DNA of 62,080 bases, the filler included, from Coriobacteriales bacterium (GTDB taxonomy: Bacteria; Actinomycetota; Coriobacteriia; Coriobacteriales; UBA8131): assembly GCA_031263105.1 (NCBI GenBank). It is 10 parts of 10 records of this genome, joined end to end, with 100 filler letters (N's around TTAATTAATTAA, not from the genome) between each part and the next. Parts side by side here need not be neighbours in the genome. Positions count along the whole stretch, not along the records: positions 49,937 to 57,564 come from JAISGJ010000246.1; positions 57,665 to 62,080 come from JAISGJ010000037.1; 8 more parts are not named here. The stretch is one strand, 5' to 3'. Of this stretch, positions 57,001 to 62,080 are shown piece after piece (positions within the stretch are counted from its first letter, which is position 1; every line of letters begins with the position of its first letter). The position numbers are program-made.

Positions 57001-60000
57001 AGAGCTCGGCGGGCTGGATGATGGGCATGCGCAGCTCCTGGCAGCCTATCGCCTCCATCTCCTCGCGGACGATGCGCTCGACCTTCTGGAGCACCCGATA
57101 GCCCAGCGGCAGAAAGGAGTAGACGCCCGAGGCGACCTTGCGTATCATGGCCGCGCGCACCAGCAGGCGGTGGGACGCCACCTCGGCATCGACCGGGTCC
57201 TCCTTGAGCGTAGGGGCGAAGACGCGGCTCATGCGGATGGGCTGAGGGGTCGATAGGGCGACTGGCACAGCGGTCGGCTCGAGGGTCGGCACGGGGCTTC
57301 CTTCCGTTCGTTCGTCACAGGAGGCAATGAACGCTCATCGCTTCCCAAAGGCCTTCCATTGTAGCGCATCGGAGCCTCGCGATGGCCGGAGCAATCGGAC
57401 GGCAGTCCGCCGCAGTCCGCCGTGCTCCTATAGGTACTGTTCACCCCACTGTCATCCCGAGCCTGCCGAGGGATCTTCGACCGCGCAAGCGGTCGACCGC
57501 CGGCCGAAGCACCGTCTGGCTGCAGTCGACCGCGTGCGCGGTCGAAGATCCCTCGGCAGGCGCGNNNNNNNNNNNNNNNNNNNNNNNNNNNNNNNNNNNN
57601 NNNNNNNNTTAATTAATTAANNNNNNNNNNNNNNNNNNNNNNNNNNNNNNNNNNNNNNNNNNNNGGGTCTGGGGGGCGGGGTCTGGGGGGCGGGGGGCGG
57701 GGGCGGGGTCTGGGGGGCGGGGTCGAAACTCCGCAGAGTCGGAACTCCCCTGTTCAGTGACAGGGAGGGGGGCTTGCCGTATCATTGGAGCATGTTGGTT
57801 CGCATGCGCCGTAGGCGCCTTTATCGCACTGTGTTGCCGCTCCTCCTGCTCGTCTGCGTGCTGCTCGCGCAGGTGGCGGGGGCGTCTCTGGCGCAGGCCG
57901 CCGAAGTTGACGATGCCGCAGGGCAGGCCGCCGGGGGCGGCGGGGCCGATGGGACGACCGGAACCGCCGGGACCCCGAAGGTCGAGGCCGTGCGGGCACC
58001 GTCAGGCGAGGGACGGGCCGCCATCGCCCTCCTGTACCTCCCCCATCTCACCTGGGACATGGTCGGCGAAGTGGCGGATGCGCCCGCATCGGGGGCGGCG
58101 GGAACGGCGACTGCCGCCACCGCCCGCGCCACCGGCGCGACCGACGCAGGCACCGCCACCGCCCGCGCCACCGGCACGACCGACGCAGGCACCGCCACCG
58201 CCCGCGCCACCGGCGCGACCGACGCAGGCACCGCCACCGCCCGCGCCACCGGCGCGGGCGACACAGGCACCGCCGCTGCCGCCGCTTCCACCGCCGCTGC
58301 CGCCGCCACGGGCGACACAGGCACCGCTGCCGCCGCCGCCGCCCGCGCCGCCGCGCACCTGCTCGACGCGGCGGCCTTCGGCAACCTGAGCGCCCCGGAC
58401 GGCGGGCAGGTCGCCGCCCTGCTGGACGATCCCGGGGTCGGGCTGTACCGGCTCGACAACGGGGCGTCCGACCCCTTTGCCGCCTCTGCTGCGGCGATCG
58501 ACGACTTCGTCTCCCACGGGCTGCCCACGGGCACGGTCCTGCTCGTCGTCACGGCTCCGGCCTTCGACGGCAAGGCGGCCTCGACCGAGCTGACCCCCGT
58601 CATCGTCTGCGGCGGGGGCGAGAGGAGCGGCGGCTACCTGACCTCCGACACCACGCACCGCACGGGGCTCGTGACCGCAGGGGACTTCCTCGCGCTGCGC
58701 GACCACCTCGGCCAGCCCCCCGACTCCCCCGCCTACTCCGAGGCGACCGTGAGCAGCATCGCCACGGGCGACGACACGGCCGCACGTATCGCGCGCCTCC
58801 AGCACGAGCTCTCCACCATCGACAGCATGCTCGCGACCAAGGCCCCGGCGAACTTCGCCTTCCTGGCGCTCGTGTTCGTCACCTTCGCCCTCTCCATCCT
58901 GCTGCTCGTCCTCGGGCGGCGCGAGAAGCGCGGCTCGCGCGGGGCGCTCATCCCCGCCGTGCGCGTGCTCTGGCTCATCGTGCTCGCCCTGCCCCCCGCG
59001 ACCTTCCTGATGTTCTGCCTGCTGCCCGCCAGGCCCGGCCCCCTCGACCTCGTGGCCGCCCTCGTCTGCTGGGTCGCGGGCCTGTCGCTCGCCGCGCTGC
59101 TCATAGGCTGGCGCACCAAATGGGTCAACGCGCTCATCGCCCTGTTCGGCCTCGTCATCGCCGTCGTCGTCGCCGGACAGCTCTTCGAGGGGCCCCTGAG
59201 CATGGCGGGCTACCTCACCTACGACATCACCGAGGGCTCGCGCTACTACGGCATGGGCAACGAGCAGGGCGCGCTGCTCTTCGGCTCATGGATAACCTTG
59301 TCCGGCCTGCTCATCAACCGGTACCCCGACGCGCGCGGCATCCCTGCCTTCAAGCGGTGGGGCTACCCGCTCGGCTCGCTCGCCCTGCTCTTCGTCGCGA
59401 CCAGCCCCTGGCTCGGCGCGAGCTTCGGCCCCCTCGTCTGGGGCCTCCTCGGCTGCTTCTTCAGCTGGTGGCTGTTCAACGGTCGTCGCCTCCGCTGGTG
59501 GCTCGTGCTGCTCGTGCTCGCCGCCGCCTTCGGGCTGGCCATCGGGGTGCTCTATGCGGACATCGCGCTCAACCCCGCCTCGCATATGAGCCAGGCCGTC
59601 GCCCCCATGGAGGAGGGCTTCGTCGCGCTCGTCGCAAGCATCGCCACGGACGTCTGGACCTACTCGTTCAGCCTGATACACGACTACGTCCCTGCCGTCG
59701 TCATCGTGTTCTTGGTCTTCGTGTTCATCCTGCTCGTGATCCTCCGCGTGCTCCAGCCGGGGTCCTACCGCGAGTTCTGGCAGCGCAACACGGCGTTCCG
59801 CGCAACGTACTCGGTCTGCTTCGTGCTCGCCGCCATCACCTTCGTCCTCGAGGACTCAGGGGTCTTCACCCCGGCGGTCCTCCTCATTTACCCCATCGCC
59901 GCCTTCGTGTGGCTCATCTGCGACCTGCACAGCTGGCACCTGCGCCTACTGGCCGCAGACACCAACGAGGCGGGCGCTCCCATCACCCTGCGCGAGATGC

Positions 60001-62080
60001 AGCAGCAGGCGCTCGACCTCGCGCCCGGACACATGTCCTACCTCCGTAGGGGACGGCGTCCTCGACGTCCCGCACCCGTCACCGCCGCCGCGACGCAGGG
60101 GGAGAGAATGGGGAGAGAGGCGGCAGCGTTGCCCACATCAAGGGCGGTGGAGGCAAGGAGGACGGTGGAGACCACCCCGCCCCTTCGGGGCACCCCTCCG
60201 AAGGAGGGGACTTTCGATGCCGCAAGGACAACGGGGGTCGTAGCGGAAGTCGCGCCGCAGGGAGGCGGGACGTCGAGGACGCCGTCCCCTACGGGCGGGG
60301 CACACGAGGCTGCCGCCGCCGCGCACGGGGGTGGGCGGCACTTCAGGGTGGAGGAGGCGCAGCCTTCGGTGGGGCGCTCGACGGCGACGATGTCCGCAGC
60401 GACCCTGCTCTCGCGCGCCACCGGCTTCGTGCGAACCTGGGCGATGGCCTTCGCGCTCGGCAACACCGTGCTCGTCTCCGCGTACACCATCGCGAACAAC
60501 CTCCCCAACATGCTCTACGAGTTCGTTGCCGGCGGCGTGCTCACGACCGCCTTCCTCCCCATCTACCTCGCACAGCTCGAGAAGCGGGGCAAGGAGGGCG
60601 CCGCGTCCTATGCGTCGAACCTCCTGAGCCTCTCCGCCATCGCATTAGGGATCGTCGTGCTCGTCGCCACGGTGTTCGCACCCCAGGTGATATTCACGCA
60701 GTCCTTCCTCACCTTCGGCGACCAGGGTCCCGACATCCAGAGCGCGGTGTTCTTCTTCCGCTTCTTCGCCATCCAGGTGCTCTTCTACGGCGTGGGCGCC
60801 CTCATCAACGGCCTGCTCAACGCGCACCGCAGCTTCCTGTGGCCGGCGCTCGGCCCCGTGTTCAACAACATCGTCGTCATCGTCACCCTGTTCGCCTATC
60901 CCTTCATCCTTGAGGCGAGCCCCGTCGCCGCGATGGTGTGGCTCTCCGTCGGGACGACCCTCGGCGTGGTGGCGATGTTCGTCGTCCAGATACCTGCCCT
61001 GCTGAAGCTGGGGATACCCCTGCGCCTCCACGTGGACCTCAGGGACCCCGCGCTCAAGGACACCTTCCGCATGGCGCTGCCGGCGACGGTGTTCATCGTC
61101 ATGGGCCTCGTCGCCTACAGCGTGATGACCGCCTGCGCGCTGCACGTGAGCCCCACGGGGCCGGGAACCATCCAGTTCGCCTGGCTGTGGTACCAGCTGC
61201 CTTACGGGGTCATCGCCGTCGCCCTCTCCACGGCCCTGCTCACGGAGATGAGCAGGGCGTCGGCGGTCGGCGACTGGAAGGCCTTCCGGGCGAACGTGAG
61301 GCTCGGGCTGCGCACCACCGTCTTCCTCATCATCCCCCTTGCCGCCATTATCTTCACGCTGTCCAACCAGCTGGCGGGCCTGTACCATGCGGGGGAGTTC
61401 ACCCAGCAGGACGTGTTCCGCGTGGCGCAGGTGGTCTCCATGTGGTGCGTGTCGCTGCCGTTTTATGCGGCGTACATGTTCGTCTACAAGATATTCAGCT
61501 CCATGCGCGACCTCAAGGCCTTCATCGTCATCGACGCCCTCGGCCGCGTGCTGCTCATCGCGCTCTACGGCTTCTTCACCACGGGCTTCGGCCTGTGGGA
61601 CGGCCTGGGCCTCGTCGGCATCCCGCTGGCCGACGCCTGCGTCAACGCCCTGCTCTGCGCCGTGATGCTCCTCGTGCTGCGACGCAGGATAGGCAGCTTC
61701 GGCCTGGGGCGCATCGTGTTCGACGGCGGCAAGGTGCTGCTGGCGGCCCTGCTGGCCGTCGCCGTGCCCCTCCTCGTCCCCTTGGGGAGCTTCGACCAGA
61801 CCATCCTCGCCTCGCTTGCCACCGTCGTGGTCTGCGGGCTCTTCTCCCTCACCGTCTACTACCTGTTCAGCCGCCTGTTCAGGGTGCCCGAGACCGAGGT
61901 CGTGTCCTCGCTCCTCGCCCGCCTGCGCGGCCGCTCGAAAGGGGGAGGATGAAGGTGAGCCCACTGTCATCCCGAGCGCAGGGGGCGCAGCCCCCGCAGC
62001 CGAGGGATCCTTGGCCGCGAAGCGGCCAACCCATGCCAAGAGCCCGCGCAGCGGGCGACACACTGCTGTCGTCGCGCCCA

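Follow-up and report, generated by a model that had tools for sequence, protein, structure and literature searches.

Enzymes of the LtaS, EptA and PIG-N types, which act on membrane-anchored glycolipids, combine an ectodomain of the alkaline phosphatase (AP) fold with a polytopic membrane domain. In the mycobacterial MviN protein (Rv3910), the partner that follows MurJ is a pseudokinase with an extracellular domain. One report describes MviN as a 15-TMS protein and places next to its gene the probably co-transcribed Rv3909, coding for a putative outer-membrane protein (PMC6656915). For clan GT-C1, another account gives a pattern of conserved outer-loop residues and a long outer loop towards the C-terminus, with a conserved Arg that binds the diphosphate and a His that activates the acceptor (PMC10920833). 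The gene described here likewise joins MurJ to a second envelope module, an unnamed membrane protein designated X. It lies in a window of 62,080 nucleotides, composed of contigs from a metagenome-assembled genome (MAG) strung together with N spacers, on contig G000:C12 (4416 bp; window positions 57665-62080). Translation of 57666-61952 yields the single stop-free frame of 1428 codons given in a preliminary description, closed by TGA. The same description had the contig starting inside the open reading frame, which is probably wrong: a GGAGG sequence is followed after 5 nt by a TTG codon, and the N-terminal stretch, M-x-Y-H-x-S/T-M and a signal anchor, lines up with the beginnings of the homologues P0006 and P0009. 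The gene is thus probably complete (57774-61952, 1392 codons) and does not run off the contig, and it reads as a single polypeptide of approximately 1392 aa with X at its N-terminus and the cell's own MurJ flippase at its C-terminus. Its coding features are as follows.

57764-57768 and 57774-57776, + strand: likely GGAGG ribosome binding site and likely TTG start codon (predicted start) of the 1392-aa ORF 57774..61952
57828..57884, + strand: N-terminal signal anchor or TM helix, preceded on the cytoplasmic side by RRRR (hydropathy peak at residues 55-73 of P0001; homologues align)
58017..58064, + strand: first beta-strand of the AP-type ectodomain, AAIALLYLPHLTWDMV, with the metal-ligand Asp of NPP replaced (alignment A1, family profile)
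58114..58354, + strand: tandem repeats in the DNA, 4.1 copies of 39 bp (95% matches) followed by a 54-bp period (Tandem Repeats Finder)
58371..58850, + strand: remnant of an AP-superfamily ectodomain, with ~200 residues of typical members missing (VIA; gaps in A1)
58857..59921, + strand: 11-TM domain of the unnamed family X (hydropathy; invariant columns in 123 sequences; model pLDDT 93.2, pTM 0.93)
59241-59264, + strand: motif RYYGMGNE of the X TM domain, invariant in the family
59406-59429, + strand: motif PWLGASFG of the X TM domain, invariant in the family
59583-59585, + strand: His of the motif SH of the X TM domain, invariant in the family
59850-59861, + strand: motif EDSG of the X TM domain, invariant in the family
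60372..61904, + strand: MurJ lipid II flippase domain (TIGR01695, PF03023)
61950..61952, + strand: TGA stop codon (translation)

The MurJ domain is the sole part of the frame matched in either family database. In Pfam (maximum E 10), PF03023 matches residues 927-1369 with 242.3 bits, and in NCBIfam, TIGR01695 (murJ_mviN) matches residues 903-1413 with 253.5 bits (cut-off 235.55). X thus has no Pfam or NCBIfam match, as reported before, and PF04932 and PF01098 are both absent from the frame at E <= 10. The fused MurJ is the one PF03023 match in the whole assembly G000, and in all five genomes tested no MurJ scores better than that of the cluster, which in four of these is the sole strong match. 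By these matches, the MurJ of the cluster is the housekeeping copy.

X, the part ahead of MurJ, is a composite of four pieces, in which a signal anchor and 11 TM helices flank a vestigial AP-type ectodomain with its Ala/Thr/Gly repeat insert. The membrane domain of about 800 aa proposed earlier is polytopic over only about 355 aa, and hydropathy again places TM helices across residues 398-752. The Ala/Thr/Gly-rich insert encoded by the tandem repeats is seen solely in the window row of A1, in no homologue, and is modelled with pLDDT < 50. The ectodomain (model residues 74-324) resembles sulfatases and ENPPs (VIA Z 7.0-7.4), and the family profile aligns the AAIALLYLPHLTWDMV stretch with LLISIDGLRADML of the Xanthomonas NPP 7mw8 (E 4.1e-5). 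The family consensus reads 'lapgl' in place of the NPP 'SIDGLR', with loss of the metal-ligand Asp, and gaps relative to P0018 and P0019 show that the protein and its own family have lost residues that include a D..D stretch and a conserved S/T-x-x-G. Weak Phosphodiest, SGSH_C or Metalloenzyme matches were found in eight of the 37 homologues scanned, and the nearest named Atlas clusters, with scores of only 0.76-0.77, bear Phosphodiest. Conservation in the TM domain is of another kind, with six invariant and further near-invariant columns among 123 sequences of 14-70% identity. Hydropathy, alignment and the model place the four motifs at the outer membrane face, with the invariant R526, N532, H640 and D730 all in outer loops, and show a long outer loop near X's C-terminal end, the pattern given above for clan GT-C1. 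As 11 TM helices follow the ectodomain, X finishes on the cytoplasmic side, which is what a MurJ with its N-terminus inside requires.

The preliminary description had named WaaL and SEDS proteins as the nearest folds, and two better models (pTM 0.82 and 0.93) returned them again. Among 48,161 chains searched with VIA, the top four for both models were WaaL 7tpj (Z 10.0/9.7 over 238/262 residues), FtsW 8bh1 (9.4/9.3), RodA 6pl5 (8.9/8.5) and RodA 8tj3 (8.6/8.3), with a designed protein at Z 8.0 just below RodA. In Foldseek, RodA and FtsW have the highest probabilities (0.63-0.66) and TM-scores (0.32-0.38) in the list; PglB, AftA, AftB and ArnT are also among its weak rows, and there was no match at E < 0.1. 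The weakness of these matches noted before persists, in that values of Z 8.3-10 from modelled structures are weak and within the range that helical membrane proteins may reach by chance. The scores stayed flat as pTM rose from 0.82 to 0.93, so that any function read from them stands at about even odds. In profile comparisons, the X TM domain reached 66.8-71.5% with Wzy_C (E 3.6-5.3e-5, 115 columns) and 18.6-27.7% with SEDS, compared with 0.3-2.2% in eight control comparisons of polytopic families taken as unrelated. The same procedure gives 91-92% for Wzy_C against SEDS, so that X is either much more distant or merely convergent. RYYGxGNE aligns to R..f.nPN of Wzy_C and to QPSE of SEDS, and P..GAN of X to the SEDS QPDLGT.

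In other lineages X and murJ are, as stated earlier, separate, adjacent and divergent. The four-gene cluster GT2<-MurJ<- ->X->PNPT-like occurs in 30 of 38 loci of actinobacterial type (L030-L066 with L095, whose labels read Coriobacteriia or other Actinomycetota or which are mislabelled MAGs). A contig end cuts off the MurJ side in seven loci, with the PNPT-like gene retained, and one has X alone. The PNPT-like neighbour, compared with 29 PF00953 sequences in hhalign, gave 92.1% locally and 96.3% globally (E 6.3e-7 and 1.3e-9), with the DD, N..N..D and GD.G motifs matching up, and two of its three nearest Atlas clusters (0.95-0.96) bear PF00953, on 33-36% of members. The fourth cluster gene thus codes for a divergent PNPT, a MraY/WecA-like phosphotransferase. 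GT2 immediately follows X or X-MurJ in seven of ten loci of the own family. In the own assembly this partner was not found (best GT2 match 45 bits, against 263-314 for orthologues), and the PNPT-like gene is on another contig, without synteny. In Bacillota GT4 is the partner of X instead of GT2, and profiles found no MurJ, GT2 or PNPT-like gene near X in 41 of 43 loci; the other two are L095 (Aeromicrobium), with the full cluster, and L076, with GT2 and the PNPT-like gene and no MurJ. Previously described fusions to MurJ and GT2, and the weak Phosphodiest and SGSH_C matches, recurred among the 37 representatives scanned, five of which are X-GT2-X' fusions. P0044 (2394 aa) is a MurJ-X-GT2-X' fusion, with a GT2 41% identical to that of the cluster over 223 aa (E 6e-43). 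The family is indeed large and unnamed, a profile search giving 4129, 3198 and 1766 representatives at E <= 1e-3, 1e-10 and 1e-30, respectively.

The earlier idea of a lipid-linked glycan ligase or polymerase gains indirect support from the cluster, from profile scores above the controls and from motifs and loops colinear with those of SEDS, and still stands near even. X may be a transferase that faces outwards and acts on lipid-diphosphate-linked glycans, taking its substrate from MurJ. In this reading, which is about as likely to be right as wrong, we infer catalysis, substrate, product and order of steps, while the architecture, the recurrent fusion, the cluster, the other fusions and the conserved motifs are observed. 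The divergent MraY/WecA-type enzyme would load a sugar phosphate onto the lipid carrier, the small GT2 would add a sugar, MurJ would flip the lipid-linked unit and X would receive it at the outer leaflet. There, acting on polyprenyl diphosphate glycans as WaaL, Wzy and SEDS of the GT-C_B type do, X would polymerise the unit or move it onto a wall component, its outer-face invariant Arg, Asn, His and Asp serving in diphosphate binding and acceptor activation. Fusion through a disordered cytoplasmic linker would hold flippase and transferase adjacent. Against this reading stand the weak fold and profile likenesses, the Bacillota loci, the four own-family genomes in which X and murJ lie apart and, in this genome, the absent GT2 and the PNPT-like gene on another contig.

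The best named matches of the GT2 are polyprenyl-monophosphate or phosphoglycerate glycosyltransferases, namely AglJ (89.8, 69 and 102.5 bits; cut-off 325), GpgS, PpgS and dolichyl-phosphate hexose transferase, all far short of the curated cut-offs. They would fit a monophosphate-linked donor at least as well as a diphosphate-linked one, which counts against the transferase reading above. X might then serve a three-component glycosylation system as its transferase at the outer face, using a polyprenyl-monophosphate sugar made by the small GT2 and flipped, and might add this sugar to lipid II, to peptidoglycan or to a polymer resembling teichoic acid, in the manner of GT-C_A enzymes such as ArnT, YfhO or those of the GtrC type. 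AglJ as a dolichyl-phosphate hexosyltransferase, the position of GT2 immediately after X and the PglB, AftA, AftB and ArnT rows speak for this unlikely alternative; however, besides the low GT2 scores, the closest likenesses in fold and profile are to WaaL, SEDS and Wzy_C, which use diphosphates, rather than to GT-C_A, the cluster includes a PNPT-like enzyme, a maker of diphosphate-linked sugars, and the partner in Bacillota is GT4, a family not known to include polyprenyl-phosphate sugar synthases. It is also unlikely that X, as a partner of MurJ, has no catalytic role or handles the lipid carrier, for example as a scaffold, a regulator or an undecaprenyl diphosphate uptake factor. Its weak likeness to known transferases, its adjacency or fusion to the housekeeping MurJ, and an outer-face Arg and His that could bind diphosphate without transfer would suit such a role, but the short invariant outer-loop motifs are typical of an active site, X is always paired with a cytoplasmic glycosyltransferase, even where MurJ is not near, and BacA/UppP was found in five of five genomes tested, leaving no need for a further diphosphatase. 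A phosphotransferase of the AP type, which would load a glycolipid with a phospho-alcohol taken from a membrane lipid, is improbable: the TM anchor, AP-fold ectodomain and polytopic domain recur in LtaS, EptA and the eukaryotic PIG-N/PIG-O, and the sulfatase, ENPP, NPP and Phosphodiest likenesses agree, but the metal-ligand Asp is replaced and some 200 ectodomain residues are gone while the TM motifs are invariant, and the best 50 VIA matches include no PDB chain of an LtaS, EptA or PIG enzyme.

The transferase reading makes use of the fusion itself, which is real. The sequences that lie between and behind the two domains are as follows.

59922..60371, + strand: X-MurJ linker, cytoplasmic and of low complexity, without family match (Pfam, NCBIfam)
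60044..60294, no strand assigned: 251-bp element with perfect 30-nt inverted terminal arms, a dispersed repeat forming an in-frame part of the linker (repeat search)
61961..62080, no strand assigned: dispersed palindromic repeat at the contig end (tail sequence), where the partner GT2 gene sits in relatives

The preceding contig ends with the same type of repeat as the last of these, at 57445-57565. The 251-bp element has 82 matches in its own genome, and its 30-nt arm has 34 at <= 3 mismatches, on 27 contigs. X is present in 25 of 34 family genomes, the own genome counted, and recurrence of the fusion was borne out by 12 other genomes whose frames, 1191-1494 aa long, are intact; in four own-family genomes X and murJ are not linked. 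Linkers differ in length and composition between fused orthologues, and the conserved PSV(G/A/R)RS(T/A)ATM closes them at the MurJ N-terminus in seven of eight distinct fused loci, the sequence read stopping before the site in the eighth, L004, and also in L005 and L014/L017. A related strain (run X2) has 60147 joined to 60329, a net loss of 180 nt that, as a multiple of three, keeps the frame. Just ahead of the MurJ N-terminal motif, GGAGGAGG is followed by GTG, so that MurJ could also be translated alone. An artefactual joining of two neighbouring genes, by an intergenic repeat that happens to be open, by loss of a stop codon or by misassembly at the repeat, is scarcely credible: the linker does hold a dispersed repeat of the type expected between genes, the GGAGGAGG and GTG are in place, no public contig was found across the 251-bp element, and the MAG consists of 250 contigs and is 6.5% contaminated, but the frame has no stop codon, a single frame is kept through unrelated linkers in the 12 other genomes (44-72% identity), P0004 (67% identical) is fused by a short linker without the element, and the run X2 variant preserves the frame.

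The X-MurJ fusion and the conserved four-gene cluster of relatives point to an undescribed cell-wall pathway. X shares its layout of AP-fold ectodomain and polytopic domain with LtaS, EptA and PIG-N-type enzymes, but lacks the canonical metal ligand and, in its own lineage, much of the ectodomain core, and has its conserved residues in the TM domain. Like mycobacterial MviN, X-MurJ joins an actinobacterial MurJ and another cell-envelope module in one polypeptide, although X precedes MurJ and is polytopic and enzyme-like. WaaL (GT121, PF04932) is the best structural match and Wzy_C (PF04932) the best profile match (67-72%); both resemble X in a conserved outer-loop Arg (R..nPN aligned) and in a conserved His within the long outer loop towards the C-terminus. 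Unlike them, X escapes PF04932, carries its 11 TM helices behind an AP-type ectodomain and has MurJ, GT2 and the PNPT-like enzyme as fusion or cluster partners, and the second conserved Arg of Wzy_C ('SR') falls on P..GAN. The SEDS proteins RodA and FtsW (GT119, PF01098), of which the genomes already have two to four matches each, differ in profile (19-28% only) and in their TM-scores of 0.32-0.38, and the His of X would take the place of their essential Asp, an equivalence suggested by position rather than by alignment. They nevertheless rank second to fourth in both VIA searches and lead in Foldseek probability, their motifs are colinear with those of X (GNE/QPSE and P..GAN/QPDLGT), the model places a long outer loop in the corresponding position, and, in a SEDS-like order, X would act directly after MurJ.

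The X-MurJ gene lies on a contig of 4416 bp (window 57665-62080), in which a frame free of stops runs from 57666 to 61949, with a TGA at 61950. While the preliminary description had the contig start inside the open reading frame, a TTG at 57774 is located five bases 3' of a GGAGG, and the N-terminus that follows it (P-Y-H-W-S-M, an RRRR stretch and then a hydrophobic helix) aligns with the very N-termini of two complete homologues, P0006 and P0009. On account of this start codon and this alignment the gene is taken as 57774-61952 (1392 codons) and is probably whole, though its frame extends without a stop back to the contig's first base. 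The contig starts (57665-57724) with 4.4 copies of a G-rich 14-bp tandem repeat (GGGTCTGGGGGGCG), just upstream of the likely start codon, and a palindromic repeat starting CCCACTGTCATCCCGAGC ends both this contig (61961-62080) and the preceding one (57445-57565). Contigs of this assembly (completeness 86%, contamination 6.5%) apparently end at this family of palindromic repeats. The unnamed part of the protein that precedes MurJ is here termed X, and residues are numbered along P0001, the translation starting at 57666.

Parts of the X-MurJ protein (P0001 residues, with the basis in brackets)
55-73: signal anchor (hydropathy)
118-133: short beta-strand (alignment with homologues)
about 150-235: Ala/Thr/Gly-rich insert, in no homologue (39-bp and 54-bp tandem repeats)
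236-395: ectodomain remnant (alignment and VIA fold match)
398-752: eleven TM helices (hydropathy)
753-902: low-complexity linker from X to MurJ (no Pfam or NCBIfam match)
903-1413: MurJ (TIGR01695, PF03023)

The insert within the X ectodomain is encoded at window 58114-58354 by a 39-bp tandem repeat (4.1 copies at 95% matches) and then by repeats with a 54-bp period, giving TGATDAGTATARA-like units that are absent from every aligned homologue. By positive-inside topology the X ectodomain is outside and the end of the eleventh helix is cytoplasmic, which is exactly what fusion to a MurJ with its N-terminus inside requires. The MurJ part is matched above the curated cut-offs and along the full-length model by TIGR01695 (253.5 bits against a cut-off of 235.55, model positions 3-504 of 506), as well as by PF03023 (242.3 bits against 27.4), and is the only PF03023 match in the 86% complete assembly. 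Its N-terminal motif, S-R-x-x-G-x-x-R, is invariant in 19 sequences. In five tested genomes with an X cluster, the MurJ of the cluster gave the best PF03023 match each time and the only strong one in four; it is the predicted housekeeping flippase. The earlier observation that nothing besides MurJ is matched by Pfam or NCBIfam was borne out for the whole protein, even at E 10: hmmscan listed MurJ alone, with no match to PF04932 (Wzy_C) or PF01098 (FTSW_RODA_SPOVE), and neither of these two models matched six X homologues.

The TM domain of X has no PDB sequence match, and a PDB sequence search with the A3 profile likewise gave no match at E <= 0.01. Structural models reached a pLDDT of 83.1 and a pTM of 0.82 for X (123-row alignment) and 93.2 and 0.93 for the TM domain alone, both far above the pTM of 0.67 of the preliminary description. 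Foldseek against the PDB returned nothing at E < 0.1 for either model; among the matches listed for the TM domain, the top probabilities and TM-scores were those of RodA and FtsW (0.63-0.66; TM 0.32-0.38; E >= 0.4). The fold search with VIA placed the same four chains at the top with both models.

Highest-ranking VIA matches among 48,161 chains (whole-X model / TM-only model)
Rank 1: WaaL 7tpj, Z 10.0 / 9.7, 238 / 262 residues, 5.0 / 6.2 A
Rank 2: FtsW 8bh1, Z 9.4 / 9.3
Rank 3: RodA 6pl5, Z 8.9 / 8.5
Rank 4: RodA 8tj3, Z 8.6 / 8.3

WaaL, FtsW and RodA thus occupied ranks 1-4 twice, at Z 8.3-10.0 and an rmsd of 5.0-6.6 A over 232-262 residues, with a designed protein (Z 8.0) next in line and, in the first search alone, an unrelated chain at Z 8.3 before it. 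Although this ranking is stable, its scores fall within what the tool itself treats as ambiguous for helical proteins, and they did not rise with model quality; the weak proximity to WaaL, RodA and FtsW reported previously persists with the better models. Profile-profile comparison, using alignments built in this analysis, gave signals to Wzy_C and SEDS above those of the controls.

Profile-profile comparisons (probability)
X TM domain with Wzy_C: 66.8-71.5% (E 3.6-5.3e-5)
X TM domain with SEDS: 18.6-27.7%
Controls, eight comparisons of polytopic families taken as unrelated (MurJ, PNPT): 0.3-2.2%
Wzy_C with SEDS, known clan mates: 91-92%

In these alignments the RYYGxGNE motif of X is in register with R..f.nPN of Wzy_C and QPSE of SEDS, while P..GAN is in register with QPDLGT of SEDS. 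Matching the ten SEDS helices to TM2-TM11 of X would bring the long SEDS loop to the place of the long outer loop of X, the one with the invariant His. Across 123 sequences that share 14-70% identity, six residues never vary (R526, G529, N532, G584, H640 and D730); they occur in the motifs RYYGxGNE, P..GA(N/S).G, SH and EDSG. They are located in the TM4-5, TM6-7, TM8-9 and TM10-11 loops, which are outer loops according to both the positive-inside topology and the helix map of the model. The TM8-TM9 loop, which bears the invariant His, comprises about 40 residues with two short helices, and is extracellular and near the C-terminus. Clan GT-C1 is characterised, in the available text of PMC10920833, by conserved residues on the outer face and a long extracellular loop near the C-terminus, where Arg serves the diphosphate and the acceptor is served by Asp, Glu or His; WaaL superposed on a polymerase there at 5.3 A over 192 residues. 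X likewise has invariant residues on its outer face and a long extracellular loop with conserved residues towards its C-terminus, and its Arg, His and Asp are invariant, the Arg being aligned by hhalign with that of Wzy_C. H640 or D730 would be the candidate counterpart of the WaaL His and the SEDS Asp. X fits the descriptive features of the clan and is a candidate relative, with homology unproven.

X belongs to a large family of more than 4000 cluster representatives that matches no Pfam or NCBIfam model, in agreement with its first description as large and unnamed. Of 301 Actinomycetota genomes sampled, 140 (in 112 of 204 genera) encode it; with ten unpublished genomes, all ten matching, set aside, the count is 130 of 291. 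In the own order, one of 20 genomes sampled from three other families contains it. A full-text literature search returned no paper on the X family or on the X-MurJ fusion, and the family is not treated in the available text of the lipocone paper (PMC12419801). Rv3909, encoded next to mycobacterial mviN and called a putative outer-membrane protein in the available text of PMC6656915, was considered as a member and dropped, with no evidence of kinship.

The genes that accompany X were examined in ten annotated loci of the own family and, by searching species-representative genomes with a 12-row X alignment, in 80 loci kept from 542 stretches encoding X relatives. In the own family, the gene immediately after X or X-MurJ encodes a glycosyltransferase (GT2) of about 235 aa in seven of the ten loci, while in five a membrane protein of about 300 aa without a Pfam match is encoded upstream, divergently and next to pyrG. 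Among the 38 actinobacterial-type loci (L030-L066 and L095, the latter from an Aeromicrobium MAG), in which partners were scored with profiles built for this analysis, 30 contain the full set GT2<-MurJ<- ->X->PNPT-like, seven stop at a contig end towards MurJ and retain the PNPT-like gene, and one contains X alone, as a second copy in its genome. The separate, adjacent and divergent arrangement of X and murJ described for other lineages is seen again as a full divergent cluster. The same partners recur within single proteins, as had been noted for MurJ and GT2: X-MurJ fusions also occur in P0020 and P0021, five representatives of about 1770 aa are X-GT2-X' fusions (X' being a second X-like part), and P0044, of 2394 aa and present on several contigs, combines MurJ-X-GT2-X', its internal GT2 sharing 41% identity with the cluster GT2 over the whole length.

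The ~300-aa neighbour is a putative divergent MraY/WecA-type phosphotransferase, here termed PNPT-like. No Pfam, NCBIfam or PDB sequence match was obtained for it (PDB profile search, E <= 10), and hhalign of its profile with single MraY- and WecA-type sequences gave only 6.2% and 1.6%; a template-side alignment was needed, and against 29 PF00953 sequences from the same genomes the probabilities were 92.1% (local) and 96.3% (global) over 227-291 columns. Its DD, N..N..D and GD.G motifs are in register with PF00953, with DLRPGR replacing DG.DG. The nearest Atlas clusters scored 0.95-0.96; two of them are named UDP-MurNAc-pentapeptide phosphotransferase (one as putative), another is named 'Glycosyl transferase family 4 domain-containing protein', and PF00953 is found on 33-36% of the members in two of the three. 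This neighbour represents a second unnamed enzyme family meriting a test. In the own genome the PNPT-like gene occurs with pyrG on another contig, beside an unrelated gene. No partner GT2 was detected there by tblastn at 1e-5, and the best match to the GT2 profile reached 45 bits. As the assembly is 86% complete, this non-detection is no demonstration of absence.

Several further features were observed in and around these loci. The Coriobacteriia cluster in L015 and L033 is located between steA / mctB(steB)-like genes and pyrG, in a recN...xerD neighbourhood, and the L015 copy is a few kb away from the mraZ-mraW cluster for division and cell wall. In one genus (L019:11461-12810) an LPG_synthase_TM (MprF-type flippase-like) gene is directly upstream of X-MurJ on the same strand. 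A 2.5-kb contig with X and a PNPT-like gene (L064, CAYHEV010000143.1) is binned in a Candidatus Bathyarchaeia archaeon MAG, where mis-binning is more likely than an archaeal copy. A PF01098 (SEDS) match is located at G000:C2:1630-2673 in the own genome, and such a match in a long open frame, of about 800-1020 aa, occurs once in every family genome, beside PF01098 frames of the usual size, about 400-780 aa; the long frames suggest a SEDS protein joined with a further large domain, which may be a penicillin-binding protein. No Wzy_C match was found in the own genome at E <= 1e-8.

In Bacillota and one Armatimonadota MAG, X occurs without the GT2, MurJ and PNPT-like partners in 41 of 43 loci when scored with the profiles built for this analysis. 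A GT4, identified with Pfam, is directly beside X in five of eight loci examined in this set, and Caldanaerobacter and Thermoanaerobacterium share the order spoIIP-X-GT4-lepA. X is therefore constantly partnered by a cytoplasmic glycosyltransferase, GT2 in Actinomycetota and GT4 in Bacillota, and MurJ and the PNPT-like enzyme are actinobacterial additions. In a Thermincola MAG (L087:1404-8268), a GT4 and a YkuD-type L,D-transpeptidase bearing PG-binding domains lie between two X paralogues, an arrangement that is a further link of X to peptidoglycan-related genes.

From these data X has about an even chance of being an outward-facing transferase of lipid-diphosphate-linked glycans that is fed by MurJ. 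The steps would run from the PNPT-like initiator through GT2 and MurJ to X. The sole indication that the donor of X is linked through a lipid diphosphate is its cluster with the PNPT-like enzyme and MurJ, and a rival is a three-component system working with a monophosphate-linked sugar, which would fit the best named matches of the cluster GT2 (AglJ, PpgS and GpgS). X might also be a non-catalytic partner of MurJ. Against this, the six outer-face residues of X are invariant, and X is paired with a GT4 in the Bacillota set, where MurJ is not nearby. For the preferred reading of X as a transferase, LCP ligases are present in all five genomes tested (two to six matches each) and could therefore attach the polymer that the pathway would make. 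A role of X in place of these ligases, or of the Und-PP phosphatase, is compatible with these results but not needed: BacA, too, is present in five of five genomes, so X is not needed for carrier recycling.

A third alternative, that X is an AP-type phosphotransferase, concerns its ectodomain. The modelled ectodomain (model residues 74-324) gave VIA Z-scores of 7.0-7.4 to sulfatases, ENPP1, ENPP6 and ENPP7, and the X family profile matched the Xanthomonas NPP 7mw8 among PDB sequences (E 4.1e-5), with the ectodomain as the sole matching part. Weak Phosphodiest, SGSH_C or Metalloenzyme matches, already glimpsed in the preliminary description, occurred in eight of 37 relatives scanned and in the distant homologues P0018 and P0019, the Phosphodiest (PF01663) match of P0019 reaching 22 bits against a cut-off of 23. 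Both fold and sequence relation thus place the ectodomain in the alkaline phosphatase superfamily. A complete set of metal ligands and nucleophile was not found in it: the metal-ligand Asp of 'SIDGLR' in NPP is replaced, and not conserved, in the X family consensus. The own protein has 'YLPHLTW' at this site and lacks the middle ~200 residues, while P0018, P0019 and typical members of about 750 aa have about 200 more ectodomain residues. The ectodomain is a decayed alkaline-phosphatase fold, and the conservation of X is concentrated in the TM domain, not in the ectodomain.

That the fusion is an artefact is contradicted by its recurrence, announced earlier and seen here in twelve other family genomes with intact X-MurJ frames of 1191-1494 aa (44-72% identity). 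The X-MurJ fusion is real. X is present in 25 of 34 genomes of the family, the own genome counted; where it stands alone its frames are 644-797 aa, and four of five such genomes encode a single MurJ elsewhere, while no MurJ was seen in the fifth, which is 61% complete. The linkers of fused orthologues differ in length and composition, measuring 75-155 residues from motif to motif in the five loci where both patterns matched. They end in PSV(G/A/R)RS(T/A)ATM at the MurJ N-terminus in seven of eight distinct fused loci; the stretch compared stops short of this sequence in three loci (L004, L005 and L014/L017). Within the linker of the own gene, 60044-60294 form a 251-bp element, read in frame and bounded by perfect inverted arms of 30 nt; in P0004, a close relative, the linker is short and lacks this element. 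Arms and core recur genome-wide (82 matches; 34 for the arm 30-mer with <= 3 mismatches, on 27 contigs). The arm copies are single or in close inverted pairs, and the core contains a second dispersed repeat with its own hairpin. In two runs with the label termite gut metagenome, depth at the arms reaches 4000-5000 and the Logan contigs break off there, so that no public contig spans the element. Sequencing run X2, however, has a contig, diverging by about 7%, in which 60147 is linked to 60329 through one additional letter; the net deletion of 180 nt leaves the frame intact. GGAGGAGG followed by GTG is located just before the MurJ N-terminal motif, and separate translation of MurJ from there may also be possible. 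The MurJ gene is presumed essential, and its linker indicates that an in-frame dispersed repeat can be tolerated as protein sequence.

MurJ is an essential protein and a drug target. The proteins that receive its product, and any role beyond peptidoglycan, are open questions. X is a MurJ partner without a name from a large family without annotation, and its three ties to the housekeeping MurJ, by fusion, by the four-gene cluster and by multi-domain fusions in a different order, make it a concrete, testable candidate for a new outer-face lipid-linked glycan enzyme and a new wall-polymer pathway. The fuller proposal, that X is a new family of membrane glycosyltransferases which forms, with a divergent MraY-like enzyme, a small GT2 and MurJ, an unrecognised lipid-carrier pathway, is rather doubtful at present. 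Were it true, the pathway would be widespread in monoderms, in about 45% of sampled Actinomycetota genomes and also in Bacillota, and would build a cell-wall glycopolymer without genes assigned so far. The housekeeping flippase, being shared, would thus serve two pathways, and in the own lineage would be physically welded to the second. This second pathway would parallel the lipid II pathway in having an initiator, a second transferase, a flippase and an outer-face polymerase or ligase.
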